Assembly (NCBI RefSeq): GCF_018350175.1
Contig: NC_058368.1
Location: 69,690,001 to 69,754,000 of the forward strand
Origin: Felis catus
Lineage: Eukaryota
Length of the DNA stretch: 64,000 nucleotides
Reading direction: 5' to 3'
The notes under the pieces were generated by a model. That model saw only the letters and a list, made by a program, of their open reading frames with translations. It was not told the DNA's origin and searched no databases. Positions 1,967 to 50,553 of this stretch are shown here, piece by piece. The position numbers were made by a program, and so were the translations under genes. Numbering within the stretch: the first letter of the stretch is position 1; each line of letters begins with the position of its first letter.

Positions 1967-2274
1967 GTCTTAGGTCTTTGTATGGAGAGGCACAGCCATA
2001 GAACAAAATGTGTTACTCATCATGTGAAAAGATTACCACGTGTTTCCTGGTCCTTTGAATGAGGTATGACTGTTTACACCGCCGTCAGTGGTACTGGGAA
2101 CTCATTCCAGCCGGCACAGACTTTCTTTTCCTTGGTTTGTATACCTTTCTCTAGTCCCTCACAGTGTGGACGAGCTGTCAGAAGTGAGCCTGACTTTGAC
2201 ACCAAACCTCCCACCCTCTTTGCATGGCGCCAGCCTCTAGGTGTGTGACGAATCATTTTTATTTGCGTCCGCAG

Positions 2275-2372
2275 GTACCTGTTTGCTCTGCAGGTGAAGC
2301 AGGATCTGGCTCAAGGCAGGCTGACGTGCAATGATACCAGCGCGGCTCTCTTGATCTCACACATTGTACAAT
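2275..2372 (+). CDS. FARP1: FARP1 exon A (FERM domain; [32 protein letters not shown])
   Basis: gcag|G acceptor, T|gtaagt donor, 98 bp; translation matches the FARP1 FERM sequence as I recall it. Confidence 0.96.
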
Positions 2373-4295
2373 GTAAGTCCTGTTGGTTTCTCGATGAAGT
2401 CGCGTTGGCAGTAACGGTGATCCGGTCAATGGGGGAAAATAATCACATCCACGAAAAACAATAATTATGTCTTTTTGTTATTTTGTTACATGAGTGCCCA
2501 TGGATTGAAAACAATACCCCTAAAGCATCATTTAACAGGTGTGGCCCCCCAAACACTGGCCTGTGAATTCTGTGTCCTTTTCAAGGACTGGTGTGCTCTT
2601 GTTGATATCTCCGTTGATGCAGAGAAGAGGCTTGGACAGATGGTGGTCAAGTAAACTAAACTTGTTTGGTCCTGTTCTTGGATTGAATATTCATGATTGA
2701 ATATGGTACATTAGCCTTAAGACATAAACCTGTCAAAGATGATGCTTCTTGTATTCTGCTGTCCCAAGTTTAGTAAACCTCAAGACACAGGAAGCTGGAC
2801 TGAATCCTAGTGATGCTTGAGACTAGATATTTTGCTTCCTTAATCTAGGCAAAGGATAAATTAGATTGTACTCATTCTAAGGCATATTGACAACCCAGCT
2901 GGGCATTGTTTTTTCTTCTTGGCCAAGGCAGAAGTAACTTGTTGAAGTTACTTGAAATCGAATATGCACATAATGTTTCAAGAAGATGATTATGTCACAC
3001 GCATTAGCACTAGTATAAAAAAATTGTGCTGTCGTATCATTTTACAATTTCCGTTGTATCCAAAGCAGTCCCATATAATCAGCCCATTTGGATAACCGTC
3101 CAGTTAACATGATTTCCAAAGGTTTGTAGGAAGTGTCACTCCTAGTGGTCAATAAATTACTTAGCCCAATAGGATTAGGTGTTTCCAGAGACCATGCTTA
3201 TCTTCTTATTTTTTGTATATGGGTCTTACTGAAGATCTACCGGACTTAGGAAGTAATGTTATTGATTCGCCACGGCAGCAAGAAGCTAGAGCCATCGATT
3301 CTTCCACTGGCCCAGCTGGAACCAGATGAGTTGGCGCTCTTCAGTGCAGAGCAAATATTCTCGGTGCTTGCGATTTATAGCAACATGTAGGCCATATCCT
3401 GCATGATGAGTGGAGGTGTATTGCCCAAAGTGTGACAGGCTGCTTCACATGACAAAACGAAGGGGAGATGTCATAGCAACCATTCACTCACTTTTACTCA
3501 AAACAGCTGGGCTCTCTGGTTGTTACACAGACCATAGGATTCAAAGAAAATGACATGCTGTCCCAGAGGTATTAAATTGATATAAACGGAGCTGGAGCTA
3601 GTGTTGTTAAGGTATAATTATTACTTTATAGGTCTTTTCTTTAGATTTCCAGATCATAGCAATTTAGGGACTATGCAGAGGTTACATGAGAAAAATGGGC
3701 CTCCTGTTCCTTGTAGGTGAGACATTTGTAAGAGGCTGCCATCTGACCAGCCATTTCTGGCACTAGGACTGCAAGATACTTCATAAACTTTAATTATTTT
3801 ATTTTACCAAATTATGTATGTTTATACCTATTTACCATTGGCTTTTCTCTACCTGGTAAAGCATTTGGTAAACTCTTATTATCTACAAGAGTTTCAAAGT
3901 TGATTTTTTAAAGTCGAAAAATGCTGTGCTTATTTAGAAGTCATAAGGTCATGGTCCACATGTCTAGAATTGACTGCCTAGAGCAGAAGTGGTCCCAGTG
4001 GGGTGGGGAGGAAGAAACAAATCAGGAACATGGATGGGTGAAATTGGTTGATGCCAAAGTTTTCTTTGCAACTGGTAGAGACGAGAGTGGAGACCGTCCT
4101 GTTACGTCGGCACGATTGTTAAATCCATCCTCACAGGGTACCTTCTGACATCCAGCCCTTGTGATACCCACAGGCTGGGATCGCCTTGTCCGCTGCCTTC
4201 TGGTTTGCTGGCCAGAGAATGTTGCCCGAGGAACGTAACAGACTGTGAAGTATTAATTGTATGTGGCTGGGTTTTCTTTCTCTGTTTCCTGGTAG

Positions 4296-4410
4296 CCGAG
4301 ATTGGGGATTTCGATGAAGCATCAGACAGAGAGCATTTAGCAAAAAACAAGTACATACCTCAGCAAGATGCGCTAGAAGACAAAATCGTGGAGTATCACC
4401 ATAACCACAT
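4296..4410 (+). CDS. FARP1: FARP1 exon B (FERM; EIGDFDEASDREHLAKNKYIPQQDALEDKIVEYHHNH)
   Basis: Polypyrimidine tract + tag acceptor, AT|gtaagt donor, 115 bp, phase fits exons A and C. Confidence 0.96.
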
Positions 4411-4478
4411 GTAAGTCCCACTGGTCCCTTCATGTTTCCCTTGAGCTTCTCTCTGTCCTTCCAGCATAGGTGGGTGTA

Positions 4479-4539
<61 letters not shown>
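4479..4539. repeat. (CA)n microsatellite, about 30 units
   Basis: Perfect dinucleotide run about 70 nt after exon B. Confidence 0.97.
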
Positions 4540-4541
<2 letters not shown>

Positions 4542-5316
4542 TAACTGTTGGGAAGAAACACGCAAGGTGTGAGGGAGAAGAGCACAGACGTTCATGGGGG
4601 CCATTGTTCCTCACCTAGGACTCTCAATGCAGGTTCCCCGCTCAACACCAAAGTTCTAGGATCCTTGCTTGATTTCCTGTGATACTGGGGTATGTCTGGA
4701 ATTGAGGATACCCATGCTGTGGAATTAAAGGGAGAGTGTAAGACCAGTTAATAGGAAATCAGAAAAGGGACACGGTAAACTAGGGGCAAAGTAGGAATGT
4801 CATGAAAATCTAGCACCTTTGTATCCTCTCCATTTTTTTGTTTTGATCAGTAAAATATTTTCAAAAGATGCTCCGTGCCTATTGATTTTGTTGCTGTTTT
4901 CAAGGAGGGCACTTGAGCCCTGGTGATAGTATGCCAGAGTGTTGCCTTGAACTTCCCTTACAAGTTTAGGCCCATTGTCAGCGACTAAAAACGTGTTTGA
5001 ACACGATGGCGTTTTGCTTTTATATGACCTTAAAGGAAACTCTTTGAGATTCCAAAAAAAAAAAAAAAAAAAAAACAACTGGGCAAATGTGAGACAGACT
5101 TTTGGGGTGTTGTGTTACACAGGCAATAGGGCTTTTGTCCTAGCTGCTCGACTTTGGGTTGCAATGAATGGGAGGCTGGGTGTCATCTGATCAGGTAGCT
5201 CCATTGTTTGTGATGAAATGCCTTTTTATTTCCCAAGAGGAGTTGCCTAATCTCAAATTAATAGACACAGGCAATTCAAATCACCTGGACTTTCTCTTTA
5301 ATTTTTGTTTTGTCAG

Positions 5317-5464
5317 CGGACAAACACCAGCAGAATCAGATTTCCAACTTCTGGAGATTGCCCGTAGGCTGGAGATGTATGGGGTCCGGTTGCACCCGGC
5401 TAAGGACAGGGAAGGTACGAAGATCAACCTGGCTGTTGCCAACACGGGAATTCTAGTGTTTCAG
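5317..5464 (+). CDS. FARP1: FARP1 exon C ([53 protein letters not shown])
   Basis: tcag acceptor, CAG|gtaaga donor, 148 bp; LEMYG FERM motif. Confidence 0.97.
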
Positions 5465-6089
5465 GTAAGAGCACTTAGAACACAGCTCAGTTCCCCTGGT
5501 GATGGAAAGATAAGAGTTGGCCCTTCAACTCTGATTGCGCGTTGGGTGGGCCAAGTTAAGACCTCTGATGGTTAATTTTAGGTGAACAGGGAGAAACTAA
5601 CCTCACCTTAGGGTTTCTATTTCTTTCCAGGCCCTCCACTTCCAGATTCTACTTCATTTGCCCTTGCTCTGGTTGGGAAATGCACAAAGATTTGCTTGTG
5701 TTTATTGACTTGGTAATCTCTGTCAGTGGACCTGTGCTCAAAACACAGTATAATAGAATCAGGATTTCAGACCCCCCAAAATAAACACTTTCTTCACACT
5801 GGCACATGATAGTCATGTGGTTCCCCCCTCTCTTTTTTAACCTGTTGAGTTTTTTTTTTAACCAAATTTAGGGATTCTTAAGCCTAATTTAGGTTTTACC
5901 TACGTCAGCTTATTTGTGACTTCAGATATACATACTTGAAAAGGGTAATGTGTACTTTTAAAGATACAGCAGTTTTATAAATTTCTACAAAGCCACGTAT
6001 AGTAACTTTGTAGTAAAACACTGCACTTGAATTCGTACCTGTGTTTTACTTAAGGACATAATTTTCTGTACTCTGAAATGTGTACTGTC

Positions 6090-6326
6090 TTTTTTTAAAG
6101 TTTGAAAATATTTTTTTAATGTTTATGAGAGAGAGAGTGAGAGAGCGCACGCTCACATGCATGAGTCGGGGAGGGGCAGAGGGGCTGGGGACACAAAATC
6201 CGAAGCAGGCTCCAGGCTCCAAGCTGTCAGCACAGAGCCTGGCGCGGGGCTCAAACTCATGAACCGTGAGATCGTGACCTGAGCCAGAGTCCAACGCTTA
6301 ACCAACTGAGACACCCAGGCTCCCCA
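6090..6326 (-). mobile_element. Can-SINE
   Basis: aagcaggctccaggctc...gagatcgtgacctgagcc...acccaggctcccc. Confidence 0.9.
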
Positions 6327-6384
6327 TGAAATGTACGCTCTCTTGGTTGCACTGTTAGATTCTTCTACTGACAGTGCTTCTTTT

Positions 6385-6550
6385 TGTTTCTTAACAGCTT
6401 CTTTGAGGTGTTATTGACATAGAATAAAATGCACATATTTAAAGTGTGCAGTTTCATAAGTTCTTGTATATGTATATCCTGAAGCAATCAATGAAATCAA
6501 GACAATGAACATATTCATCACCCCCAAAAGTGTCCTCAATGCTTTTCTTT
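6385..6550 (-). mobile_element. Old L1 (L1M) 3' end fragment
   Basis: aaaatgcacatatttaaagtgtgcagtt...aacatattcatcacccccaaaag. Confidence 0.65.
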
Positions 6551-8009
6551 TAAACAAAATCGAGAGTAATCCATGCTTTGGTTTCATAGGGGTATGGAGA
6601 AAGTGTCTGCCTTTAAGTAGGGTAATCTTCACCAGTTTTGAAGGCATAGATATGTACACAATCTAAAACATTTTGGTTTATATTTGGTTTTGGTTATATT
6701 GTCCCTTCGTATTTTACCAAATTGGTCTCAGTGCTTCTCTGCTCCTGTATCAGATGTTTATGGTGGACACGGATTATCATAGGATCCTGTCCCAGGCGGA
6801 GTCGAGGTTGGGTTTCATATGGGAGAGTAAGAAGGGAAGGTTTGAAAGCAGTGTACGATACTTGAGGTAGCTTAACAATTGGTCTGAACAATTTCTGAAC
6901 TGCCAAAATAACATAGGAGTACTTGATGAGCAAAATGACAATAAGCCAAATGTAAAGCTTTCAGTCCTACCGTTAAATTTTGAAATCAGAACCCTTAAGC
7001 ATTTTTAAAAATCATGGGGGGGGGGGGGGGAAGAAGTGCCTCACAATTGAATTAACGTGCTTTGATTATATTTGATACAATCTAAATATTGAGAATTACG
7101 CAGTAGTTTAATCGTGTACCAAGGCTGTATCTTGGAATTAATCTTGCCAGTGCCTAATTGCTTCATTCTTACCAATTTCAATACATGGTCCTGGTGTTTC
7201 AGCAGCTCTGGAGGAATTCTAATTTAGGCGGAGATGACAGGACAGATGGGAGCTGGTGTCTGGTCGCTTCCCCTTACTTCTCCATCACCCTGTTCCTCAC
7301 AGGAACAGGGACACAGGAACACCCTGTTCCATCACACCTGACTTTCAGAACGAGGATGTGTGAGTCCTTCCCAGAGACTGTTCTCTGGTCTAGAAGACAA
7401 ACCACAGGCCGGGACTCCCTTCCCCATCCTGCTTGTGCTGCTGGGAGCCAGACCAGTGTGCACCTTGGAGGTTGACCACCAGCCTGGTGTGTTGCTTTTA
7501 TGGAAATTAACAGTCGCTGCTGGTGAAGGCACATGGTGGGGCACCTCATTCTGCCACGTGAGCTGTGTGATTTTGGACAAATTAAAATAAATTCATGCAG
7601 CAGTTTCCACATCTGTGAAAGAGAGATAACAAACCCATCTCACTGGGTTTTGTATAAGGTTTGGTAAGATAAGGTCTGTAAAGTCCTTTCCCTGGCACTG
7701 GAAAGTGATGGTCACTAATTGTTGTGGTTGCCATGGTTTTTATTGTTATTTATCTTTCTTAGCATCCTTCCTTTGGCCAGCCGCTTCCCTCCCTGGAGGC
7801 AACCTTAGTTTGAATACCAAAGCATATAATTAGTGAAAGATAATGTTCCAGGAACAGGCATCACCCACAGCTGCAAATCCTAGCAAATTCTCTAGCAAAA
7901 GGCATTCTTCCCAAGCAGTCAAAAGCAGGTCCCTATATGCAAGGCAAACCACCTCCCATGTTGCTTCTTCTGCGTTTCCTGGCTCACTGGCTGATCCCTT
8001 CCTTTGCAG

Positions 8010-8105
8010 GGTTTCACCAAGATCAACGCCTTCAACTGGGCGAAAGTGCGCAAGCTGAGCTTCAAGAGGAAGCGCTTTCTCATCAAGCTCCGCCCAGACG
8101 CAAAC
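8010..8105 (+). CDS. FARP1: FARP1 exon D (FERM C-lobe; [32 protein letters not shown])
   Basis: gcag acceptor, AAC|gtaagt donor, 96 bp. Confidence 0.97.
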
Positions 8106-9147
8106 GTAAGTGGGCGGGGCGGGATGACGCCAGGCAGGTGTCTGAGGGTCTGTGCCGAGTGTCCTGCCCAGAGGCTCAATCACCGTGCTGTCACCTGGGT
8201 AGACACAGCCAGGGTAGAGAATGTTCAGCCCCTCCCGACAAACCCATGCCTTTGCTGGGCTCCAGCCTCCAGGCCATCCCCTCGAGACCCCGTTCAGCAT
8301 CCGCAGTATTCGGGGCGCACCCCTGGCCGCACAAGCCTCCAGCTCTCCCCAGCCCTCGCGTCCCTACTCTTGTCCCCTGACCTCTGACAGCACATTCTCG
8401 CAAGCTAAGCAGGTCCACCCCATTTTCTGGAGAACCCCTGAGGATATCGCTCACCCCAGGACCGGATCAGAGAAGGAGCGTCTCCTTCCCCCCGCGGGAA
8501 ATGGCAATGGCGGAGATGGCTGATTGATCCTGGTGTCCCCAACCAGAACTTGGGAGAGTTTTGTTCCCGTGGAAAAAAAAGATGATAAATGGCAGTCTAA
8601 CCTTACCGTTCAGCTACCGAATGGATTAAATGAGCTTTTATGGCCTGACCTAGGAAGCAACCGCCCATTATAAGTTGTTTTCTATGGGAAAATTCTTTTG
8701 GAGTTCTAAAAGGCCACTTGCAAATGCAGAATTGCCTCAGCTTGTTTGTAAGTTGGGTCTGCCCAGAACTGTGAGATTCCCCCCAAAAGAGTTGGAAGTT
8801 CTGGGAACCGTTAAGGCTGTAGTAATTCCTGTTTATATAATAGGGCCACTTACATTGAGAGCATTCAGCCTGGGAATACAAAATGACACTCTCCCCTTTC
8901 CAGAATCAAAGGACATGACTTTTTCAGCCTTGAGTGATACTTTTGTGTTCCAGAAAAAAAAAATGATCATTTCCTGTGGGGTCCCCTGGAGGTTTGAGCC
9001 ATATGCTACTTGACAGAGAAGAGACTTACGACCAGTATGCAAAGTCGGCATGAGCCATGAGGGAGAAAACAGAAGAGTGTGTTTCAGTTATTGTAAGGAG
9101 GCAGAACAGGAATTTCAGTAGTTGGATTTTTTTTAAGAAGGAAATAT

Positions 9148-9365
9148 GGGGGTGCCTGGGTGGCTCAGTCAGTTGAACATCGACTCTTCGTTTCAGCTCA
9201 GGTCATGATCTCATGGTTCATGGGATGAAGCCCCACATTGGGCTCTGCACTGACAGTGTGGAGTGTGCTTTGGGTTCTCTCTCCCTCTCCCTCTCTCTCT
9301 CTGTCCCTTCCCAGCTTGTGCTCACTATCCATCTCTCTCAAAGTAAATAAACTAAAAAAAAAAAG
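9148..9365 (+). mobile_element. Can-SINE
   Basis: ggggtgcctgggtggctcagtc head, aaataaa/A tail, flanking ggaaatat duplication. Confidence 0.9.
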
Positions 9366-9439
9366 AAGAAGGAGGAGGAGGAAATATAAGCCACGTAAAC
9401 AAAATTTGTTCATGAATTCTGTCACAAGAAATGTTAGGA

Positions 9440-9662
9440 GGGGCCCCTGGGTGGCTCAGTCGGTTGAGCGACCGACTTCGGCTCAGGTCATGATCTCACA
9501 GTTCATGAGTTGAGTCCCGCGTCGGGCTCTGTGCTGACAGCTCAGAGCCTGGAGCCCGCTTCGGATTCTGTGTCTCACTCTCTGTCTGCCCCATCCCCAC
9601 TCATGCTCTGTCTCTCTCTGTCTTAAAAATAAATAAAACATTAAAAAATTAAAAAAAAAAAG
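9440..9662 (+). mobile_element. Can-SINE (felid type)
   Basis: Full length, A tail, flanking aaatgttagga duplication. Confidence 0.92.
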
Positions 9663-9924
9663 AAAAATGTTAGGAGTTCTGTGAATTACCCCTGTTTTCT
9701 GTTAGCTCCTCTAAGGAATTTTGTGAGGGGAAAATGGTTGAATGATGACTAGATTTTGTCATTAGGAACAACTCTATTTTACTAACTATGTGAATTTGTG
9801 GTCGTGCTATAATAAAATGCACCAGTGAAATTTTATTGGACATACTTCTTTTCTGGCCCTTTTCTCATGTTTCAACCTGATGTCTGTGGGTCAAGGGGGA
9901 GAAAATGGTCTTTTCTCTTTTTAG

Positions 9925-10088
9925 AGCTCGTACCAGGATACCTTGGAATTTCTAATGGCCAGTCGGGATTTTTGCAAGTCGTTCTGGAAAATCTGTGTTG
10001 AACATCATGCCTTTTTTAGACTTTTTGAAGAGCCCAAACCAAAGCCAAAGCCTGTTCTCTTTAGTCGAGGCTCATCATTCCGGTTCAG
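9925..10088 (+). CDS. FARP1: FARP1 exon E (FERM end/FERM-adjacent; [54 protein letters not shown])
   Basis: tttag acceptor, CAG|gtaagg donor, 164 bp; WKxCVEHHxFFRL and GSxFRF motifs. Confidence 0.97.
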
Positions 10089-10808
10089 GTAAGGATTCCA
10101 TAGCACACCTCTCGTGTCCGCCACGGGAGCATTTGTCCCGAGACGTCCTTCTCCTACCCTCTGGTGCTGCTGCTACACAGTACAGTGGGGAGCTAAGTGG
10201 AAAGTTGGCCTCTGGGAGCTATGGCTGGTGGGGTGATTGCTCGGTCATTCCAGCGGCGTCCTGGAATGACCAGGAGGTCATGTTCTGCTCGAACATTGGC
10301 CAAGAGGCCCTTCACCCCGCCACAGTAAACTCCAAACAGGACCCTCTAATTCAGGAGGATTCCCTTTCTCTGGAGAAGCAAGTGTCTTGTTAACATTTGG
10401 TGTAGCCTTCGGGAATGTTGTGTGCACTTGCCCAGCACTGCTTCACTTTCTCCCTCTTTCAACAAACATTTGAGTGTTTGCTGCGTATCAAATCCTGTTC
10501 TAAGCACTGGGGATATACAGTGAACAAAATTAGCCCTGTGTCCTCGAAGCATGTAGACTCTTGCTCAGGATGGTGGCTTCGTAATCAAACAGAATTATTT
10601 AGAAGGAAAATGCCAAGAAATGCAATGGACATACATTTTTCTCAGAGAAACACAAGTTCCTCCCAGAACTGCTTTTATCCCCAGCTAGCTGAGAAAGCCC
10701 ACCTATCTCCCAGTTGTGGAAGGAGGGGAGGTAGAGACGGGGTGTTGTGTGTTTCAGTGAGAATCCCTTGCCGTCTCCTTTCCTTCCCTCTCGTTGTCTT
10801 CCCTTTAG

Positions 10809-10877
10809 CGGTCGGACTCAGAAGCAGGTTCTCGACTTTGTTAAAGAAGGAGGACATAAGAAAGTGCAGTTTGAAAG
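10809..10877 (+). CDS. FARP1: FARP1 exon F (FERM-adjacent; GRTQKQVLDFVKEGGHKKVQFE)
   Basis: tttag acceptor, AG|gtaaga donor, 69 bp; completes the SGRT motif with exon E. Confidence 0.95.
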
Positions 10878-11377
10878 GTAAGAGAAACTTCGATGCTACT
10901 TCGACTTGACAAGAGTCATCGTCTGCAGGTGACAGTGCTTTGCTCCTGACTGTCTCTTCACCCAGGCCTGGTGAATTACCATATCAGGGCCTCACAGTCA
11001 ACCTGGGCCAGTTTAGTGTTAGGAACATTCGAGGGCTGGGGCACACCTCAAGGATAAGATGAGATGTAAACAGACCTGGAGGGCCAAGTGAGGAAGAGGA
11101 GGAAACCAGCAGGGGATGGAATGGAAGAGGAACAGGAAGGAGATTGCAGTGGGGCTAAAGCACAGTAAAAACTTCCTCCTCTCTTTGTCCTTGAGTGTCT
11201 TGGGATTTGAATCAAAAGTATTTCTATAAACTTTTAAATTAAATACAGCTTGGATGAGAAGCAGGATTTATTGCTGTTGTTAGCAAATGCTTACAGCTCT
11301 TGCTGCGTTCCACGCACTTTGCATACATTAACTCAGTCTTCATACCAGCTGTGTGAGGTCAGTGCTCTCCTAGTCCC

Positions 11378-11586
11378 TTTTTTAAATACTTACTTATTTA
11401 TTTTTGAGAGAAAGAGGTTGTGAGCAGGGGAGGAACAGAGAGAGAGGGAGACCGAGAATCCAAAGCAGGCTCCGTATTGTCAGTGCACAGCCCGACGCGC
11501 GGCACGAACTCCTGAACCGTGAGATCATGACCTGAGCAGAAACCGAGACTCAGATGTTTAACTGACTGAGCCACCCAGGTGCCCCT
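11378..11586 (-). mobile_element. Can-SINE, probably inserted in a MIR
   Basis: Near-perfect flanking duplication ctctcct(a/g)gtcccttt. Confidence 0.9.
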
Positions 11587-11755
11587 CTCCTGGTCCCTTT
11601 ATAAAGATGGAGACACTGAAGCTCAAAGAACTCAGGTCTCAGAACTGACAAGTGGCCCCTGGTCAACCAGCATCAAAGCCCCATGCCCTGAGCAAGGCTC
11701 TGTCGCCAGAGAGGGGAGAAGGTGAGAATCCAGAGATTAAAAGAAAAGGGTAATT

Positions 11756-11960
11756 GGGACACCTGGGTGGCTTAATCGGTTAAGCCTCTGACTTCAGCTC
11801 AGGTCATGATCTGATGGTTTGTGAGTTCGAGCCCCGTGTCGGGTTCTGTGCTGACAGCTCAGCGCCTGGAACCTGCTTCGGATTCTGTTTGTCCCTCTCT
11901 GTGCCTCCCCTGCTCACACACTGTCTCTTACTGTCTCTCAAAAATAAATAAACATCAAAA
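11756..11960 (+). mobile_element. Can-SINE
   Basis: gggacacctgggtggc head; aaaataaataaacat tail. Confidence 0.9.
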
Positions 11961-12386
11961 CAATTTGTTTTTAATAGAAGGGTAAAAGGGTGGAGCTGTG
12001 GTGCACTGAGGGCTGTTTGGTGCATGTGCATTTTTTAAAAACATTTTTATTTTTTATATTTTAACATATCTTAAAATAACTGCGAAGTACAGAGATCACA
12101 GCAAACGTCCATATTTCTTTCCATTTCTGTTTTTTTTTTTGTTTTTGTCTTTGTTTTTACCTTTTTGTGTGTAATTACTGTTACGACAGATATGGCTAAA
12201 ACCCCCTTAACGAACAGCCACCTTTGTTACTTCCCTTCTCTCCTTCCCAGAGGCAACAACTGCCAACTTCACATTATTTCTTTTACACATATTTATGCAT
12301 TAAAAAAAAAATATGCAGCATTTCTCTCGGGTGTACTTTTTCATTGATTTAACTAGTATCGCACTGTACATAATTCTGCATCTTGC

Positions 12387-12592
12387 TTTTTTTTTTTAAT
12401 GTTTGTTTATTTTTGAAGAGAGACAGAGCATGAGTGGGAGAGGGGCAGAGAGAGAGGGAGACATAGAATTCGAAGCAGGCTCCAGGCTCTGAGCTGTCAG
12501 CACAGAGTCCAACGTTGGACTCAAACTCATGAACCGTGAGGTTATGACCTGAGCCAAAGTCAGACGCTTAACTGACTGAGACACCCAGCATC
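12387..12592 (-). mobile_element. Can-SINE
   Basis: Poly-T then gagacagagcatgagtgggagaggggcagagagagaggg. Confidence 0.9.
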
Positions 12593-13415
12593 CTGCTTTT
12601 TAAACCCTGACCTGATTTGGAGATCTGTGTTGATGTCCTTCGGTATTGTGAAAGTATTTCATTTTATTTATCTGATTTTCTGTTGATAAACAAACCTGAA
12701 TGTTGGTATTTTGTTTCACTCTGGCTGAAACAAACCTGCTGCTGTGACCATCCTTGTGTTTTTGGAGTCTTTTGAAGAAAAGCTGAATGTACATTAGCAT
12801 TTAATCCCTCTGTGTTTATAGTTTCATCATTTGAGTACCTGAAAATTTCTAAGGCCTGTTCACGGAGGAAAAGGAGGGCACTCAGAGACTAAGGGAGGGA
12901 ACAGATAAAGGAGAGTGTTAGTGGCATGAAAGCCAGTTCCTGGTCCCGTTGAATCTGTAAATTCATTCATGGGGCAGGCCTTCTGTGAACTCAACACTGG
13001 GAAAGAGTTAGCTGATGAGTAGTAGTCACCTCTGTTATAGAACTAATCTAGAAAATCATTGCCCAGAATACATGAATTGCTTTCATATTGTCAGGCCAGA
13101 ATTTGCAATTCAGAGCATACTCAGCCCAGCCAACTCTCCCTCCCAGTGACTCTCCTACAACTAGAAAGGTAATGCTCAATGGCTAGTGTTCCTGACCAGC
13201 TGTACCACTCGAACAGGAGCAGGGGATTGCTGAGAGTGTTTTCAGGGTTTAAGTATACCCTGAACCCTGTAAGTGCTATGAAAAGGACGACTGTTTCCAG
13301 GGAGCATCCATATACACTACTTCACTCATCTTCATATTGAGGAAGGCATAAGACTTATTTTTCATTTAAGAAAACAGCTTTTCTCACTATGGCTCTCTTA
13401 CGTGATTTCTCCCAG

Positions 13416-13491
13416 GAAACATAGCAAGATCCAGTCCATCAGAAGCCTTGCTACACAGCCCACGGAACCGAATTCAGAAGTGCCAAAACAA
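13416..13491 (+). CDS. FARP1: FARP1 exon G (KHSKIQSIRSLATQPTEPNSEVPKQ)
   Basis: cccag acceptor, CAA|gtcagt donor, 76 bp, phase 2 in and phase 0 out. Confidence 0.92.
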
Positions 13492-14499: not shown

Positions 14500-14800
14500 G
14501 CAGCCCCGCCCCTCCACCACCGTGTAACCTTCCCCCTTTCTCGCCCCGCCCCGCGCAGGCGCAGCAGAGTGCCAGCCTTCCGCCCGGAGAAGGTGCGGAG
14601 CCCGCAGGTGGCGCGGGCGGTCAGCAGGCAGCGGAGCCGAGCGCTGCGGCCGAAGAGCGCCAGAGCCCCGCGCCGCCCAGGAGCCCCGCGGGCGGCGGGA
14701 AGGCGGACGGAGCCCCGCGGGCGCCGGCCGACGAAGAGGAGGAGGTCGTTAAGGATAGGACCCAGCAGAGTAAAGCTCAGCCCCCGCAGCCGAGCACAGG
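14500..14800. promoter_or_regulatory. Intragenic CpG-rich patch over exon H
   Basis: Very GC-rich with many CpGs, e.g. gagccccgcgggcggcggg. Confidence 0.55.
14559..14799 (+). CDS. FARP1: FARP1 exon H, canonical form (linker; AQQSASLPPGEGAE...EEEEVVKDRTQQSKAQPPQPST)
   Basis: cgcag acceptor after a pyrimidine tract; weak donor CAG|gtccag; 241 bp; phase 1 joins exon I to give STGSLTGSP as in FARP1. Confidence 0.9.
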
Positions 14801-15773
14801 TCCAGCATCCAGGGCTGCCAGAGGCAGCAGCTCTTCCATTCCTTTCATTGACTGCAGTGACGTAGATAGTGAATCCGACCTGCTCAGGGAGCAAGCGTCC
14901 CAGTCCCAAACAAATGACAATTATGAGGGTGATTTGACCAGTGGGGTGTATCTGCTCTCCGGGGATGAGAGGCGGACAGAGGCTAGGCGCAGGGCTTCCC
15001 CTCCCTCCGTGAAGTCCTCCCGGCCTCCTTCCAGAGAGTTCGTCGATGATGATTCAGCAGACCTAACCTTTGATATGAGTGGGAGCCCCAGACTCCCAAG
15101 ACATAGCTCCCTGATAGATGAGCTGTTCAGGAGCTCCGGCGGTCGCAGTCCCCCGGCCACCCCATTGTCTCCCAGTAGCAGACGGTCGAGTCCAAGTAGG
15201 AGTTGGGACAGGACTGGGTCTCAAGGCTATGTTTCTGAAAATGGGCATGACCCAAGAGAGGAGAGTACAGGAGAAGGTCCTCTCCCAAGCCAGGGTCCTC
15301 CTTACGAAAACTCTTCCCCCGTCCTGCAAAGGCCATACTTGGGGAATCTTCCCAGTCGCTACAATAAGTCAGAGACAGATCCCCTCATCCTTAGCCAGGT
15401 AGCATCAACCCCAGAGGCAATGGGTGGGCTTGATGGCCGTGAAAAGGGAGGACTGGCCAGCCTGGCTGCTTCAGAAGGTAGAATGCTGGCTAATGGTGCA
15501 CCTCAGGTGGGCCCCACCTCAAAGATCCCTGTCGTGCGGTCAGTGTGTGCCAGAGGCATGGCAGACCAGCGAGCGCCCCTGCAGGTGACTGAGGGCTCCA
15601 CCAGCAGCGGGACTGAATCCAGCGATTCAGACTCTGAAATGGTGGCCCATTTGAGCCAGCCACTCACATTTGGCAACCCAGCAGCAGTGCTGAGCTCCCC
15701 TTCCATGCTTAGAAGTAAGAAGCCCCTGGGTGGCCTACATGTGAGTGAGGAGGAAGAAGAGGAGGATGAGTAG
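14800..15773 (+). CDS. Putative in-frame extension of exon H (alternative terminal or giant exon; 323 extra residues ending VSEEEEEEDE*)
   Basis: Part of the 14247-15773 ORF, in frame with exon H, no stop until 15771; protein-like low-complexity composition; no recognisable repeats. Confidence 0.7.
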
Positions 15774-16995: not shown

Positions 16996-17574
16996 CCCCT
17001 CAGCCTGACACAGTTGCCTTCTAGAATCTAGTGGAATAAATTTCTGGCTGGCTTGCAGAGTAAGGAAAGCATCACACATGAAATACTTTGATTAATTAGT
17101 GCCTGTTCTTTGGTACTTTTCAGTCTTTGGTACTTTTTTTAAGAAGATGACTTGTAGAATCAAATTTTTAGATCCTAAGTAACTACCAAATTATTGGAAA
17201 GAGTTCTAACAATGACACATCCCTGGCGTGCCGCCATGCCTACGGCCTTACTAAGCTCATCGTGTGATGTTGTCACAAGGGAAGAGCTACTACGCATGCT
17301 TAGGAAGTGGGGTAGAATTTGGCAGCCATATGCAACAAATACAAGTATTGACTGACCTTGTGGCTCACAAATGATTATCGGTCCACAGGAATGTCGACAA
17401 ATTGAATTTTAAAGACTGAAAACTTAATCCTTTCTAGACAAACTTTTTTTTTTTTTTGGTGTTCTTTTCCTGATCGTTTGATTCAGTGCATGATTGATGA
17501 ATCAAACTGAGTACTGGATAGTTTGAAAGATGTTCATTGAAGTAGTCTATTGATGTCTTACCTTAGATATACAT

Positions 17575-27930: not shown

Positions 27931-28118
27931 GCTCCCTGACTGGTAGCCCTCACCTTTCAGAGCTGTCCATCAACTCGCAGGGAGGAGCCGCGCCCACCAA
28001 CGTGATCCTGTCTCCCAACCTGAGCCCCGACACCAAGCAGGCCTCTCCCTTGGTCAGCCCGCTGCTGAACGACCAGGTGTGCCCACGCACCGACGACGAG
28101 GAGGAAGGCCGGAGAAAG
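27931..28118 (+). CDS. FARP1: FARP1 exon I (linker; SLTGSPHLSELSINSQGG...PLLNDQVCPRTDDEEEGRRK)
   Basis: aatag acceptor, AAG|gtgtgg donor, 188 bp. Confidence 0.95.
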
Positions 28119-28660: not shown

Positions 28661-29231
28661 CCCCAAAGGTGGCGTCAGGTGGACTCTTGTGGAAGCAAGC
28701 GAGATCGCTAGCGACAAGGGATTGCCTCTCACTTACTGTTGAAAGAGAAAGCAAAACCCCTAACTGGCCCACTGTCGAGAGGTGCCTGCTCACCTAAGTG
28801 ACAGACTCCGGAGAACCGAGTCCCAATGGTGTCTGTCACCAGCTGCTTTCACTTTGTCCCCTCAGATTGGCCACCCTACATATTCCCACAAACACTGTAG
28901 CTTCTGTTTCCTGAACACCCAACACCACCAGCTCCCGGCACCCAGGACAGAGGCCACTGTGGTTTCTGTTGCTTTTAGTTCCTGGAAGACTGCATTGCTC
29001 TGATATTTTACTAGTTGATTAGATTTTCCGATGCCCAATTTTGAATGAATTGTTCTCCGCGGTGGCTACATGCTCACTGGAGGCCTTCTACTGAGGGTAA
29101 TGTTTATGTGGAAGGAAACCTCCATTTTCTTCTGCTAGTTCCTCACACAAAAAGGGGGACAAATAAGAGTTGATTTAGTCTGTAGCCCAGTTAATAAAAC
29201 ATCATGAATTAGTAATGTATCGCTTTTGCAG

Positions 29232-29321
29232 AGATTCCCGACTGACAAGGCATACTTCATCGCTAAGGAAGTCTCCACCACCGAGAGAACTTATCTGAAG
29301 GATCTTGAGGTCATCACTTCG
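29232..29321 (+). CDS. FARP1: FARP1 exon J (DH start; RFPTDKAYFIAKEVSTTERTYLKDLEVITS)
   Basis: ttgcag acceptor, TCG|gtatgt donor, 90 bp; TERTYLKDL DH motif. Confidence 0.97.
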
Positions 29322-30360
29322 GTATGTGTAGCGTTTCCCCTAAAGCATCCAATTACATAATTTACCTCCACTCATATGCAGCTTTCAGAGAGAAGCTGGG
29401 TCTAATTAAAATGTTGGGTTCTCTGACTCCAATTAAAAGGATTTGGTTTTCTGGGTGATAGAAATTAGACGGCAAGAGAATATTTAATTTGGAACATGCT
29501 CTCTAAAAATTTGTATAATTGTGATTTTTAAGTGCAAAAGAAGGAAGTTTCTGAAGTGGAGAAAATGAAAGTTGAGCATTTTGCTGTGTGCGTGCACCAG
29601 GGCAGAGCAGTTTGTGTTTGGCCCGTCATCCAAGGTAGCTGCTTTTGCTTGAGGAAGACCCCAGAGGTGAATGGAAGCCTCGTTTCATCCTTGATAATAA
29701 ATCGAGCCCTGTCAGCAAACCTGACAGGAGACCACCTTTAATTATTTTAATAAGTCCTGTTCAGTCTGAGAAACAAATTCAAAGCATTGTAGATGTCTTT
29801 ATGGCACCAGGATTCTGAGAAAGAACTAGACATTGGAGGTCAGTAGGAATCACTGGGCTTCTGCACCTCCGGGGCATGAATGGTGCCTGCCCGCCCCCCA
29901 GCAGGTGCTCAGTAAACATTGTGGGATAGCCCTGCCTCGCGAGCGACTGCATGTACAGGCCAAGGCTCTCCCTCTCTCTGGTGCGGCCTCGTGGGTGCTC
30001 AGCGTTTTCACAAGGGAACAGAGATAGATGTTCCAGAAGGACTGAACCAGAGCGGGTGCAGTGGTCTAAATCAGTGGTTACCAGGGAGTTGGCCAAAGTG
30101 GAAGTTTTGATTCGAAGTAGCTGCCCACTTCGGAGATTCCTCCTGGCCTCCACGGCCAATTGGTAACAGACGGGTGCCTCTCACCCCGTGTAATTGAAGA
30201 CTGCACAAGCAGTAAGGCCCAGAAGCCCCCGCTGGTGCTGAGCACTGCCTACCGAGCAGTAAAGACCTGGGGGCTCCAGGCACACTGGGCCGCAGCATCA
30301 CCTCTGAAGGATCACCTCATTCAACTTTACACCTCTAAGTGTGTCTTCTTTTTATTCCAG

Positions 30361-30494
30361 TGGTTTCAGAGCACAGTCAGCAAAGAGGATGTCATGCCCG
30401 AAGCCTTGAAAAGTCTCATATTCCCGAATTTTGAACCTTTGCACAAATTTCATACAAGTTTTCTCAAGGAGACTGAACAACGACTAGCCCTGTG
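30361..30494 (+). CDS. FARP1: FARP1 exon K (DH; WFQSTVSKEDVMPEALKSLIFPNFEPLHKFHTSFLKETEQRLAL)
   Basis: ttccag acceptor, TG|gtgagt donor, 134 bp. Confidence 0.96.
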
Positions 30495-30544
30495 GTGAGT
30501 ACAGCAGTAACATTTAGCAGGTATATTTGGGGGGGGGGGGGGGG

Positions 30545-30760
30545 CGGCGCCTGGGTGGCTCAGTCAGTTACGTGTCCAACTCTTGGTTTTGGCTCAGGTC
30601 ATGATCTCACAGTTCGTGGGATCAAGCCCCGTGTCGGGCTCTGGGCGGAGACCTCAGAGCCTGGAGCCTGTTCCAGATTCTGTGTCTCTATCTCTCTCTG
30701 CCCCTCCTTGGCTCATGCTCTGTCTCTCTCGTTCTGTCTCCAAAATAAATAAGGATTAAA
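30545..30760 (+). mobile_element. Can-SINE preceded by a poly-G run
   Basis: ggcgcctgggtggctcagtc head; aaaataaataa tail. Confidence 0.9.
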
Positions 30761-30932
30761 ACAATTTTTATTCAGATAAATAGAAAATACTACATTTTGT
30801 CCCTACACCGTCCTCTTTCTCTGACTCCCTAATGTTATTTTTGTGTCATGCCTTCTAAACAGCTGTCACAGCCAAAGATAAAGGCAAGAAACTGGCTTGA
30901 GATAAGCCAACCTTAAGATGATTTCCCGGTTA

Positions 30933-31098
30933 GGAGCACCTGGGTGGCTAAGCATCTGACTTCGGCTCAGGTCATGATCTCACCGTTTGTGAGTTCAAGC
31001 CTGCTTCAGATTCTGTGTCTCCCTCTCTCTCTGCCCCTCCCCTGCTTGTGTGCGTGCACGCTCGCTCTCTCTCTCTCTCAAATAAATAAAAAAAAAAA
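30933..31098 (+). mobile_element. Internally deleted Can-SINE
   Basis: Head and A tail present, middle missing; flanking atttccc(g/a)gtta duplication. Confidence 0.85.
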
Positions 31099-33069
31099 TT
31101 TCCCAGTTAAATTCTATGTATATTTAGATCTCATCCTGGATTTTCCCCCCCTTTGGTTTATAATTCTTCAAAATGCATGTTTTCTTATAATTCAGTGAAT
31201 ATCACAAAATAAAGATAGTAGGTACTTCTGGAAAGCCGACGAGGGTTCTAAAGAACAGGCGTACTGAGGGATTCCCAGGGGGAGTTGACGGTAGTCACTG
31301 GCTCTTGCTTTATAGTCGTCTGTGAAGTATCTGTATCTCTCATGCAGTTTTCAGTATTCTGTTGCACTATGTTGAGGAAGTGGTTGGAAAAATGTAGAAC
31401 CCTACATACCACGCACACACTTGTCCTTGAATCCCGCATCTAGGAATGTACCTTAAGGATACATTTATAATGTGAAATGATGTACAACAGAGATAGCCAT
31501 GTTAGAATTGAAAGATTGTAAATGATCTAAACGTCCATGAACAGATTGGTTCAAAATAATATTAAGTCCGTTTAATACTGAATAAAACATTAACCTGGTG
31601 CAAGAAATCAGGAAACACCTCATGTGTCATAGGATGCAAAATCCAGTGTACCCTTCTGTAAAATTAGAACCTTTCCAGAAAATTATTAGGGTTGTTGTTG
31701 TTGTTGTTTTAAGACCATTCTATGCAGACTCTTAGGGAGTTGACCTTCTACTAAACATACATTTGGAAAACTCCAGGAGAAAATAGCAAAAACTTTCTGT
31801 GTTTTAGGCAGAGGCGGGAGCCATTGTATACTGTATCCTCACGGGAGGTGAGAATTTACTTTAAAGCGGTCTCGGGGCATTTAACGGCTCAGGGGCCTAA
31901 AGGAGCTGCCGATGAGCTGGTCTTGCCCCAGGTGATCCAGACAGTGGGTTGCAAGTGTCCGTTGAACAGGTTCATGGGGCTGCTCTCCTGCCTAGTGACA
32001 TGAACGTGCTCTGGTGTCCGACTTCATGTGTGTGCTTTAGGATGATTCACATGCCGTTCTCACCCTGCATTAGAAGGAGGTGGGAGGCATTGCCAAGATG
32101 CCCCAGGGAGGAGAGCAGAGCCAGGGTTGAGAAACCGCCTCATTGAAAATGGAGAAAGGTTGGAAACCCCACTTTAGGGCCACACTGTAGGTTGGGGCTG
32201 TGAATGTAAGAGAAATGCCACTTTTCAAAATTAAAAAAGATTCCACAGGATCTAACTTCTTATTTTACCTCCCAAAGTCTACCTGGAAACATTCGGTTGC
32301 ATTCTGCCATGTTCTGTTGCCTCATCATTCCTACAAAGTGAGACGATGCTTTCGTAATGGAGTCAGAGAACTTACAACTCTGGAGAAATCCACTCACAGT
32401 TTGTTTGGCCAGTGAGATGTGTGCGAATGCAGTCTTAAATCTTCCGTAGGCTGGGGCGTCTTGAGCAGGTGTCACTGTGGCAGCTCTGGTCCATGTGGCA
32501 GGTGACCTAAATAATGGGGAGGCCACACACAGGAAATGTCATCAGCTGTACCCTGGCAGCTCAGCATGGTGGCTTCAGCTGGCCCCTGCCACCAGAGAGA
32601 GCTTCAGGGAGCTGTAGGGAACATTTCATACTAGGAATAAACGCCACACTCTTTATTATCTGTGACCATAAATCTTTTGCATCTAGTCCTTCACTGTGAA
32701 AGAATATCCAGTTGCCTAAAAAGCAGCTGCTGTCATTTATTTCCCAGAGGATTTTCAGTAGATCTTTCAAAGATCTATAATTTTATCCATGTTTTACATG
32801 ACAATACCAGAAGCATGTAAAAGACTCAAAGCTAGAAAGAGAGCAGACAGTCAGTATGAAGCTCAAGGACGTGACTTGACCTTGCAACAATGGACCCAAA
32901 CCAAATTGATGACATTTATCAGGAATAAATGTAAAAGTCTGCTGCTAAGTTCAACTAGTCACTTCCTCAAGTGCATGATGAGGAATTGGCAGGGATTCAA
33001 GGCAAAAAGGCTGAGTGAATGAGTGTGTGAGTCAACAGAATAACACAGAGAGGACCCCGTGTGTGTATC

Positions 33070-33230
33070 TGTAGCTCTCAACATCAGCTGCGCAGCAGAA
33101 TCACCTGGAACCTTTACAAAATCTTGATAGCCAGGCAGAACCCCAGACCAGTCATAGCAGAATTTCTGAGAGGTTGGACCTAAAGCTTCCCCGATGATTC
33201 CCGTGTGTAGCCAGGGTCGAGAAGGCTTGT
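33070..33230. mobile_element. MER5-like fragment
   Basis: cagcagaatcacctggaa...ccccagacc...gcagaatttctg...gatgattcc. Confidence 0.6.
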
Positions 33231-33649
33231 CCTAGACTGCCTCACGAAAGCGGCCAGAGCACAAAAAAATGCTCAGGGCTCCTTCAGAACACTAGGCGCA
33301 GTTCTGAGTTTCACTTTTGAAATGGAATAGAGAATGCATTCCATTTAAAAAAAAAAAAGTTGTTGAAACTATGGGCATTTGTCCTAGAAGAGAGAAGATT
33401 CTAGAAAATCTGATGGCTCTGTTTAGTCTGGTCATGTGAAAAGGGAGTGTCTTCTTAGTTGTATCAGAGAACAGAATCTAAACAGTGAATTTCCAAAGAG
33501 GCACATCGTGTCTAAATATAGAGAAGGATTCCCTAGCACTAACACTTGGCGATGAGAGGCTGCCTTAGGAGGTAATGAGTTCCTCCACCTTGGGGTTTCT
33601 TGAGCAGAGGTGGACTATTTCTAGAAGGCATTTATCTGTTGGAAACCCC

Positions 33650-33830
33650 AAACCTGGCACTGCAACACGGTCACCTGGGATTGGGATGGGGGAGTTTTGA
33701 AAAAATAGAGATTGCTAGGCCCCATCCAGCCCTCCTGAATCAGAACACTGGGAGGAGTCCCAGACGTGTGTATTTCTAAAGTGCTTCTTGAGATGACTGT
33801 GATGAATACCTTTTCTGGAACAACTGATAC
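33650..33830. mobile_element. MER5-like fragment
   Basis: aaaaatagagattgctaggccccatcc...tgaatcagaa. Confidence 0.55.
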
Positions 33831-34812
33831 GGAGCTCCTGTGACAAACCTAAGATTCTATGATTCTCTGAGTTGCATTTTGGTTATAACTCTTGTTTCTT
33901 CTACAAGCAGTGAATGCATACACAGGTGGGTGGGGGAGCGAGCGAGCTAGCTCAAGTATAAGGCTTTGCCCGCTGGGGGCTTGTGGTCTCCGGAGCAGAA
34001 AGGCATGGAAAAGAAGGAGGGCCGGGCCCTGTCATGGATGAGTGAACCATGTCCAGTGTGGGCATGGGGCATCACTGGCCAGTTCTGCCTTGACGTCTGG
34101 GCCATTGATGCCTGCACAGCATAGGCAGCCTGTGTGAATGAATATATTTAAGGAAAAGAATGGAATGCAGGGAGATTCGTTAAGAAAGGAGTTCACACCG
34201 AGTTCTGGACCGCCAGGCCAGATGGAAGTAGATGTGTATGCATGTATGTGTCTATTCAGTCTGGGGTATGGGAAACCCGGCTGGCCCGTGCCGAGGGGGA
34301 TGGCTGCGTTCTGGCTGTGTCCACGCTCCCGGCCACACCACCACCGGACATCTCTGGCTGCCTCTGGCCCTTGTGGAGCTACACTGTGTCATCTGTAGTA
34401 TGTGCACCTCATAGGCCTGTTACATGGACAAAATGAGACAGTATTTGTGAAGGGCTTAGCCTTCTGTCCCATTTGCAGAAGGTGGGAGAGGAGCTGATCT
34501 TTCTTTATATTGTTTATTTTGAAATAACTTTAGATTTAGAAAAAAGTTGCCACGACAGTAGGGTTTCTGCCCTCACGTCAGCTTCTTCCATTGCTGGGCA
34601 CGTCGGTCAGTTAGGAAACTAATGTGGCTAAGTTACCATCAGCTAAACTCCCGCCTTTATTCGGTGATACTCTTTAAATTACTACTGTTAATGGAAAGAA
34701 ATCTAAAGTTTACTATGCATCTAAAATTCCCCCAAATTTGGTACTTAAATGACACGGCCACCATGGTTTTACATGAGGCAGTGCTATGCTTCGATCAGCA
34801 GTGGGAAGTCTT

Positions 34813-35042
34813 TTTTTTTTTTTTTTAATTTTTTTTTTCCAACGTTTTTATTTATTTTTGGGACAGAGAGACAGAGCATGAATGGGGGAGGGGCAGAGAG
34901 AGAGGGAGACACAGAATCGGAAACAGACTCCAGGCTCTGAGCCATCAGCCCAGAGCCTGACGCGGGGCTCGAACTCATGGACCACGAGATCGTGACCTGG
35001 CTGAAATCGGACCCTTAACCGACTGCGCCACCCAGGCGCCCC
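34813..35042 (-). mobile_element. Young felid Can-SINE with perfect target-site duplication
   Basis: TSD agcagtgggaagtctt at 34797-34812 and 35043-35058; CpG-intact body. Confidence 0.95.
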
Positions 35043-36474
35043 AGCAGTGGGAAGTCTTAAGGCAGAAAAGTTACCAGGAATTTCCCTGAATGAGGAGGCT
35101 TGAACCCCTGCTCAGTAAACACACCTGCCCGCATCCAAATGTTGCGTCCTCCTGAGTAAACCCACCTGATGAGGGGATGGGCTGTTTCAGCCTGGCCAAA
35201 GCCCAGGTGACCCTGTTTCTTCAACAACCAGGAAACAGGTTTGGTGACTTCTGAAAACAGGAAGAATGCCTTTCTTTTTGAAAGCCAGGATATTTTGCCC
35301 AGCTGTTCAAATGCACTCAGAGAAAGCCTCTTACAACCTTTGGCTTTCAGAGCTGTGTCCCAAATTCCAGCCCCGAAAGGCCTGGCAGGCAGAGTGAACA
35401 CCAGCCGACTTGTTCCCCAGACCTGGATTCTCTAGCACAATGCGCCTCGGTAGACTGTGCCCCGTGCAACATCAGCCTGCAGGGAGCTGGGGTCTGGGCA
35501 AGAGGCCTGCAGAGAGTCATGTGGGATCTGCTGTGGGCACACACAGTTCTCAAGAAGGGTCTGCTGCATTTATTAGAAGCTTGGCAGCAGATTCACTTGG
35601 AAGGGGTGCAGAAGTCTAGCCGGGAGGGGTGGGGAGACCGGAGGTTGAGATGTCGCCGAGCAGACAAGTTGGGCCCACGGGACCAAGGAAAAGGCCAGGG
35701 GGAGGCCCCGAGAACTTTGATCCTGGTTACCTGGGAGGATGCTCACAAAATTAGGAAGCCGAAAGAAGAAAGGAAGAAGCAAATATAACGGAGGGAAGCT
35801 GAGTTTGCTCTGGGTCACATCAGCTTTGAGGGGTCAGTAATGAAGTCCTTCCGGCAGTTGGAAACACAGGTCTCAGGCTTGGGAAAGAAATCTGGTGCAG
35901 TGATGTAGATATGGGAGTTACCCACAAGAAGAATCCTGTCCTGTAAGGAACAACAGTGAGACAGAGGAGAACCAGGGACAGAATCGTGCCGAATACACCT
36001 TATTGTCAACTTTCCATAAACGTGTAGCTCATGGCAGAGCAAGAGCCAGCAGAGGAAATGGAAAAAGCCACGAGGGGTGAGCAGGGGTGGAGCGTCCCTG
36101 AGGAGAGCACGTCTGAAGAGTGGCGGGACGACGTGCAGAGAAGATTGAGGCAGGGTCCCTGGGGTGTGGGGGCAGGAGCAGGCTCGGACCCTAGGGGGTT
36201 GAGAGACAGGAGGGTGTCCGTCCGGAGCAGAAAGGAAGCTCCTCTCTCAGGAGGACTGTGATCAGGGATTTCACCCGTGGAGCCGTGTTGTCCTGCCAGG
36301 ATGCTCCAGGGGCTGAAGAGGAGTGGGGGGTGACCGTGTGGGTGAGACCGTGATTTGCAGCCCTCCCCCAGAGTGCACATCTTCATAGTAGCTTCACAGT
36401 GAGCAATCCTAAAACAAAAAAATGAGTTATAAATCTTTTCATCCTACCCACTCTTTGAAGCTGGTCATCCTTAA

Positions 36475-37140
36475 AATCATAGGAATTCCTCAAAAAATTA
36501 AATCTAGATTTCCCATGGCACCCAACAGTGTCCAATCCTAGCTGTATGTTCAGAAGAATTGAGAGAAACGGACCCAGACAGATACTTCTACACCCACGCT
36601 CATAGCATCGTTATTCACGGGAGCCAAAAGGTTTGGTTTGGAAGGAACCCTGTGCCCTCTGATGCGTGAACCATTAATGGATAAACAAAATGTGGTACAT
36701 CATACAACGGAATAATATCCTTAAAAAGGAAGGGCATGCTAGGGGCGCCTGAGTGGTTTAGTCAGGTCAGCATCTGACTCTTTGTTTCGGCTCGGGTCAT
36801 GATCTTGAGGTTTGTGAGTTCAAGCCCCGTGCCGGGCTCCAAACTGACAGCACGGAGCCTGCTTGGGATCTTCTCACTCCCCCGCACTTTCTCTCTCTCT
36901 CTCTCCCTCACACTAAATAAACTTTAAAAAGGAAGGATATGCTGATACATGCTACAACACAGATGCACCTTAAAGACATGCTAAATGAAATAAAAACCAG
37001 AACAGTGTACAATTCCACTCATGAGCTACTTAGGGCAATCAGATTCAGAGAGACAGAAAATAAAATGGAGGTTGCCAACGCCTGGGGTTGAGGAAACAGC
37101 TAGTGTTCGGCTGTCCAGAGTTGGGCAAGATGAAAGGTGG
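36475..37140 (+). mobile_element. Old L1 3' fragment interrupted by a SINE
   Basis: atggataaacaaaatgtggtacat...gacatgctaaatgaaataa...cagagagacagaaa. Confidence 0.75.
36742..36925 (+). mobile_element. Can-SINE nested in L1
   Basis: Flanking aaaaggaagg..atgct duplication. Confidence 0.88.
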
Positions 37141-37145
37141 GGATG

Positions 37146-37360
37146 GGGGCGCCTGGGTGGCTCAAGTCGGTTGAGCAGCCGACTTCAGCCCATCTTGATC
37201 TCATGGCTTGTGAGTTCGAGCCCCACATCAGGCTCTGTGCTGACAGCTCAGAGCCTGGAGCCTGCTTCGGATTCTGTGGGTGTCTCTCTCTCCACGCCTC
37301 CCTAGCTCACGCTCGCGCTCTCTCTCGCTCTCTCTCTCAAAAATAAATAAACATTAAAAA
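37146..37360 (+). mobile_element. Can-SINE
   Basis: Full length with aaaataaataaacattaaaaa tail. Confidence 0.9.
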
Positions 37361-37381
37361 ACATTTAAAGACTAAAGCCCA

Positions 37382-39055: not shown

Positions 39056-39090
<35 letters not shown>

Positions 39091-41981: not shown

Positions 41982-42022
<41 letters not shown>

Positions 42023-50503: not shown

Positions 50504-50553
<50 letters not shown>

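Follow-up and report, generated by a model that had tools for sequence, protein, structure and literature searches.

The window analysed here is a 64,000-nucleotide stretch of the cat (Felis catus) genome, and it carries exons of the gene FARP1 on the + strand. Seven upstream FARP1 exons, whose products are FERM lobes and the adjoining FERM-adjacent region (about residues 133-388 in orthologue numbering), were located at 2273..13491 (+) by tblastn of the orthologues P0004 and P0018; the window opens at about FARP1 residue 133, and the first FERM exons lie outside it. The constitutive linker exon, called exon H hereafter, was placed at 14559..14799 (+) from the sequence, the reading frame and the orthologue alignment: it follows an acceptor AG at 14557-14558, comprises 80 codons plus one base and ends in phase 1. 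Its canonical donor, GTCCAG (14800..14805, +), is a weak match to the donor consensus. The next constitutive exon (GSLTGSPHLSEL...) was found by tblastn at 27931..28118 (+); it begins with GC after a phase 1 acceptor AG at 27929-27930, and the canonical junction, also in phase 1, reads ...PSTG/SLTGSPH. Seven further FARP1 exon matches (tblastn, 29229..63393, +) cover the DH and PH region, which is absent from the short isoform described below.

The reading frame of exon H does not close at its donor. The stop-to-stop frame that contains the exon runs from 14214 to 15773 (+) and holds 519 codons; no other stop-free run in any of the six frames of the window is longer than 267 codons. The in-frame extension, referred to as the tail, occupies 14800..15770 (+): the codon at 14799-14801 is Gly, followed by 323 conserved codons (14802-15770), and a TAG stop at 15771..15773 (+) comes directly after an acidic run, at the same end as in mammalian orthologues. 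Exon H and the tail were matched together at 14658-15746 (tblastn, two orthologues). The tail is thus read in frame straight from the linker exon and stops before any DH or PH exon, and the upstream FERM and FERM-adjacent exons lie on the same strand, as in a FARP1 short isoform.

With a per-codon stop probability of 0.038, calculated from base composition, 323 codons would stay open with a probability of 4e-6; in first-order Markov simulations, 1 of 20,000 sequences was open throughout the 323-codon stretch. The other five frames of the same stretch contain 6-31 stops each. For the remaining 15 FARP1 exon matches, the frame stays open for only 0-93 codons past the end of the match. The 93-codon value, the second-longest read-through, belongs to the FERM exon matched at 7998-8105 (region 7998-8384) and is within chance. 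Tandem Repeats Finder detected no array inside 14800-15773. A 29-base array of 2.2 copies (74% matches) was detected at 14679-14741, inside the G+C-rich exon H, where it codes for repeats resembling 'SPAGGG / APRAPA' in the linker, which is poorly conserved. The tail is composed of 18% Ser, 10% Pro, 15% Asp+Glu and 20% FWYILVM, and a Pfam scan of exon H plus the tail returned 0 families. A first-pass annotation, made from the sequence, had described a frame open for 323 codons past the donor, free of repeats, very unlikely to have opened by chance and unmatched by the read-through of any other exon; all four statements hold, and the ends of the translation that it quoted match ours.

For the analysis of conservation, the 323 tail residues were searched against a set of 5.8 billion proteins, limited to proteins of 567-2,000 aa, and 8,000 candidates were scored. 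Among these scored candidates, 70 proteins matched at E<=1e-3, and every match with a gene name was FARP1. The tail was covered over 96-100% of its length in bat, pig, hamster, a marsupial, birds, lizards, frogs, sturgeon, teleosts and elephant shark, and matches were also obtained from a lemur. Identity to the cat tail was 81% in bat, 75% in human and 68% in hamster (98-100% coverage), values that mark these sequences as orthologues, and 60% in the marsupial, 54-55% in birds and 45% in elephant shark (99% coverage for the last). No stops interrupt the tail from mammals to elephant shark.

Conservation was also compared along the frame. In 10 species, identity to the window was 41-84% for tail residues 1-226, 31-73% for residues 227-323 and 20-59% for exon H. 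Against fish and shark, residues 227-323 are 43-48% identical, and so are as conserved as residues 1-226. In frog, fish and shark, exon H (14559-14799) is 20-22% identical and the tail extension (14802-15770) 41-51%. The alternative extension is better conserved than the constitutive exon that it extends, and the segment 14800-15773 is coding sequence: an ancient alternative coding exon. An alignment of 11 tail sequences contains 43 invariant columns, gathered in short islands between variable, indel-rich spacers, as is typical of linear motifs within disordered protein. The islands are rich in Ser with acidic or basic neighbours and may be docking sites regulated by phosphorylation.

The proteins that contain this extension have two builds. 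End positions within 24 residues of the tail end were found in 39 of the 70 relatives, which carry FERM and FA Pfam domains only, without RhoGEF or PH; the other 31 run on beyond the tail, most of them into RhoGEF and PH domains. In mammals, including the marsupial, the short forms end immediately behind the acidic run, and the window does the same. The ending VF[SGNR]C occurs in 22 of the 39 short forms, all from non-mammalian species. In birds, lizards, frogs, sturgeon and teleosts, the short isoform continues past the acidic run for another 16-24 residues (compared with window positions 15771-15815) to the conserved end ...SDEDG..VF[SGNR]C, a piece that mammals lack. Several short forms are encoded on small contigs (793 aa on 3,695 nt; 786 aa on 2,974 nt; 813 aa on 2,720 nt). 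In the window, the corresponding coding parts are spread over more than 13 kb; such contigs leave no room for introns and were taken as assembled spliced messages.

In the longer build, the extension serves as an insert ahead of the exchange-factor half. Many predicted GEF-bearing isoforms of teleosts contain the whole tail. Mouse FARP1 isoform 2 (P0018, 1,278 aa) leaves the tail at the equivalent of window-tail residue 226, and elephant isoform X1 (P0033) at residue 132. Because the acceptor at 27929-27930 is phase 1, only phase 1 donors inside the tail keep the frame, and four such donors are present in the window (+ strand). The donor aag|GTAGAA (15478..15483; exon end 15477, +226 residues) lies at the exit of mouse isoform 2, and caa|GTAGGA (15196..15201; exon end 15195, +132 residues) at that of the elephant isoform. 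Two more, gaa|GTAAGA (exon end 15714, +305) and tga|GTGAGG (exon end 15744, +315), both within 15715..15750, are candidates found in the sequence. The exits of predicted long mammalian isoforms differ by species (residues 132, 226, 235 and 291), and for the exits at residues 235 and 291 no GT stands at the matching place in the window; some of these models may be prediction artefacts. In the armadillo FARP1 isoform X1 (P0069, 1,093 aa), only tail residues 234-292 are present, set as a cassette inside the protein with the linker before them and SLTGSPH after them. This cassette implies an acceptor inside the tail in armadillo, or else a prediction artefact.

The 31 continuing relatives, with mouse isoform 2 and many teleosts among them, and the four phase-compatible donors are what would be expected if the extension were coding only as an insert of long GEF-bearing isoforms and the stop-terminated short protein were a functionless by-product of incomplete splicing. 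This is unlikely. Past the donor used in mouse isoform 2, residues 227-323 are still as well conserved in fish and shark as residues 1-226; the ending in VF[SGNR]C of the 22 non-mammalian short forms, ...VFSC among its variants, means that the stop position too is conserved; and full short messages exist as intron-free contigs. A mouse peptide published by Li et al. (2021; PMC8248162), LSEEEGVHG, points the same way: in rodent tails it falls at the extreme end, past the internal donor, and its non-tryptic end would fit a protein C-terminus.

This peptide comes from a study of mouse brain, and the isoform is already known to annotation and to the literature. In Li et al. 2021 (Alzheimers Dement; PMC8248162), an 800-residue "novel" Farp1 isoform is attributed to a retained intron, nine peptides are given as specific to that intron, peptides from it are recorded in 132 samples, and the stretch is identified as an annotated exon of a human Ensembl transcript. 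This mouse isoform has the same gene, exon and frame as the window and differs only in species. Among the published peptides (PMC8248162), one ending in ...QPSTGPASR crosses the exon H joint and HSSLIDDMFR is the mouse counterpart of HSSLIDELFR, which the first-pass annotation had put forward as a tail peptide to look for; SQTNDNYEGDLTSGVYLLSGDER is identical to the translation of the window. A 2025 review (PMC12294458) repeats the Farp1 isoform finding. Databases also hold short forms of the same build as that of the window, such as P0002 (bat, 795 aa), P0004 (human, 'partial', 797 aa) and P0011 (orangutan, 'FARP1 isoform 12', 786 aa), whose tails are 68-81% identical to the window in mammals. 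Mouse isoform 2 and other long forms share the same extension, and the exit of the mouse form corresponds to the window donor at 15477; unlike the short isoform, isoform 2 keeps DH-PH-PH and lacks the last 97 tail residues. In the open-access literature, a full-text search with three tail peptides returned no match, and no functional study of the FARP1 short isoform was found.

The first-pass annotation had called the isoform hidden, a description that annotation in many species, human included, and the peptides in print overturn. Its central proposal, a second FARP1 protein with FERM-FA and the tail in place of DH-PH, stands on the 39 relatives so built, on the mouse peptides and on a tail kept to cartilaginous fish. 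What it had not foreseen is the use of the same extension, through downstream donors, as an insert of GEF-bearing forms (mouse isoform 2 and many fish).

The description by Li et al. 2021 (PMC8248162) as a retained intron raises a further explanation, namely ordinary intron retention, in which the transcript would be degraded or nuclear and the open frame tolerated rather than selected in this lineage. The weakness of the canonical donor GTCCAG would favour retention. A neutral intron, however, would not keep 323 codons open (4e-6), nor would it reach 41-48% protein identity to fish and shark, above that of the flanking constitutive exon, and Farp1 tail peptides are recorded in 132 samples in the same source. 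Conservation largely refutes this reading, which we regard as very improbable. A chance open frame in a non-coding intron, for which there speaks only the raised G+C of the region (0.565 at 14001-16000) with its lower stop frequency, can be dismissed in view of the openness of the frame (4e-6), the 70 relatives, the 43 invariant alignment columns and the cross-species identity.

We therefore consider it highly probable that 14800-15773 is a conserved alternative coding extension of FARP1 exon H, which gives rise to a short GEF-less form and is also used as an insert. When the weak donor at 14799/14800 is left unused, translation would continue for 323 codons to the TAG at 15771, and the message would presumably end at an intronic poly(A) site; the first AATAAA after the stop, a bare motif match at 17035..17040 (+), is a candidate signal for such a composite terminal exon. 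The predicted product of about 790 residues would consist of the FERM and FERM-adjacent domains and a disordered Ser/Pro/acidic tail, without DH-PH-PH. Splicing of the internal donors (exon ends 15477, 15195, 15714 and 15744) to 27931 would instead place part of the tail in the FERM-DH linker of a GEF-bearing isoform. In read-through transcripts that retained the exons further downstream, the TAG would act as a premature stop and expose the message to decay.

We infer that the cat expresses the short isoform. The tail stretch is contained in 19 of the 24 sequencing runs listed, of which one is on record as RNA, and its presence there as contigs could equally reflect pre-mRNA or DNA. An AlphaFold2 model of the bat short isoform, built with 16 sequences, had a mean pLDDT of 34.5; the FERM domain was also modelled with low confidence, so the lack of secondary structure in the tail is uninformative. 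The short form would keep the binding of the FERM domain to membrane and partners and would be unable to activate Rho-family GTPases. By analogy with FRMD7 and with worm FRM-3A, which work with CASK/LIN-2 (FRMD7 binds CASK), it would act as a membrane-bound scaffold, and the short and GEF-bearing forms may compete for the partners of the FERM domain.

The likeness to FRMD7 extends from the build to the sequence. FRMD7, the X-linked nystagmus gene, has the same FERM-FA head as the FARP1 short form, a large last coding exon at the same place and no DH-PH; it differs in being a separate gene without any GEF exons, and alignment with the FARP1 tail leaves most of its C-terminal domain unmatched. 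When a tail-only profile was searched against the 5.8-billion-protein set, 96 hits were obtained, every named one FARP1, and no FRMD7 or FARP2 was returned from the 8,000 scored candidates of 698-2,000 aa; because only 8,000 candidates were scored, this blank weighs little. A profile of 13 full-length short isoforms was then run over all 1.84 billion representatives and returned proteins named FRMD7 (frog, horn shark, bird and cod) as well as FARP2. Within the 251 proteins collected, a tail-only HMM matched FRMD7 proteins (E 2e-11 to 5e-4), an unnamed deer protein (E 3e-7) that was matched to the FRMD7 locus of the cat genome, and one fish FARP2 (E 1e-4); the remaining newly returned proteins that it matched were only FARP1 fragments.

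The block shared with FRMD7 occupies the last ~60 residues of both proteins and consists of a serine/acidic run (S-S-D-S-[DE]-S-E), about 20 variable residues and the motif R-x-[KR]-x-S-x-G-S-L-Q-L-D-E-E. Alignment of the tail with FRMD7 by hhalign gave a probability of 96.8% (E 2e-10, 58 columns, 45% identity); the match spans only 58-91 columns and is partly Ser/acidic low-complexity sequence. The FRMD7-like build of the FARP1 short form, FERM-FA followed by a terminal exon without DH-PH, thus includes a homologous end block over these last 58-91 columns. In the cat genome itself, the last FRMD7 exon (L014, C47:108483009-108483554, - strand) lies in a 390-codon open frame, and roughly the last 50 residues of this frame match the FARP1 tail profile with 23.7 bits. 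That the feature in the window might itself be the FRMD7 gene was considered and rejected: the cat FRMD7 is elsewhere, on contig C47, and the window carries FARP1.

Judged by these profile comparisons, the C-terminal block of the FARP1 tail is homologous to the C-terminal domain of FRMD7, and the likeness suggested in the first-pass annotation goes beyond analogy. In two FRMD7 papers, the C-terminal domain is said to have no homologues, and the homology with the FARP1 tail is not stated in the open-access papers searched.

The paralogue FARP2, whose intron the same annotation had named for comparison, has a similar large open exon. In the cat genome this exon (L002, C17:221224294-221225502, +) is open for 425 codons after the FERM-adjacent exons, and its translation, without stops, shares 71% identity with the tail found in a short FARP2 form from a lemur (P0108). 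The lemur FARP2 isoform X1 (P0270, 1,294 aa) carries most of the FARP2 tail as an internal insert ahead of the DH-PH half. With a short form and an insert form both present, FARP2 has the same dual use as FARP1. The arrangement of the FARP2 proteins (P0108, 788 aa; P0110, 781 aa; P0270) is that of FARP1, and the tails have the block EEFIDDDP..SF.AGG in common; except for this block and a weak acidic-serine block, they have diverged beyond recognition. By hhalign, the FARP1 tail matched FARP2 with 94.6% probability (E 7e-8) over 74 columns centred on EEFIDDDP..SF.AGG. No match to the cat FARP2 exon was obtained by hmmsearch with the FARP1 tail profile, so the link to FARP2 rests on hhalign and the one fish FARP2; the window tail alone, searched against the cat genome, found only itself.

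A comparable gene layout has been described in C. elegans. According to Zhou et al. (2020; PMC7260190), FRM-3A consists of FERM-FA and a C-terminal part without recognisable domain. An alternative splice within the final exon of frm-3a yields frm-3b, which has a GEF and two PH domains, and FERM-FA by itself rescued the clustering of GABA-A receptors, together with LIN-2/CASK. FARP1 has the same two-isoform layout: donors with exon ends at 14799 and 15477 stand at the start of and inside the terminal exon of the short isoform, and both are in phase with the acceptor before 27931. The likeness to frm-3 noted here concerns the gene layout.

These observations can be joined in one reading, which we put forward tentatively, as plausible rather than favoured. 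An ancestral FARP gene with two isoforms, laid out as worm frm-3 still is, would have had a single terminal exon from which the FARP1 tail, the large FARP2 open exon and the FRMD7 C-terminal domain all descend; FRMD7 would be the paralogue that keeps only the GEF-less form, and the short forms of FARP1 and FARP2 would be FRMD7-like, CASK-binding membrane scaffolds.

The isoform itself is not new, as it is annotated and its peptides are published. What is added here, and may interest specialists, is the conservation of the tail above that of the linker exon, the dual use of the extension, the tail homology with FRMD7 and FARP2 and the likeness in layout to frm-3. Work on FARP1 describes it as an exchange factor for Rac/Cdc42 whose linker is "non-conserved" (PMC6041286). 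A second, ancient product of the gene has no GEF module, and its tail shows higher conservation than the linker exon. Any knock-down, knock-out or antibody directed against the FERM half hits both products, and phenotypes assigned to exchange activity may for this reason partly be those of the scaffold form. For FRMD7, the link to the FARP1 tail gives the C-terminal domain its first homologous partners for study at the level of motifs. If the joint reading is true, the short forms of FARP1 and FARP2 could share functions with FRMD7, and such an overlap would go some way to explaining the narrow phenotype of FRMD7 loss.
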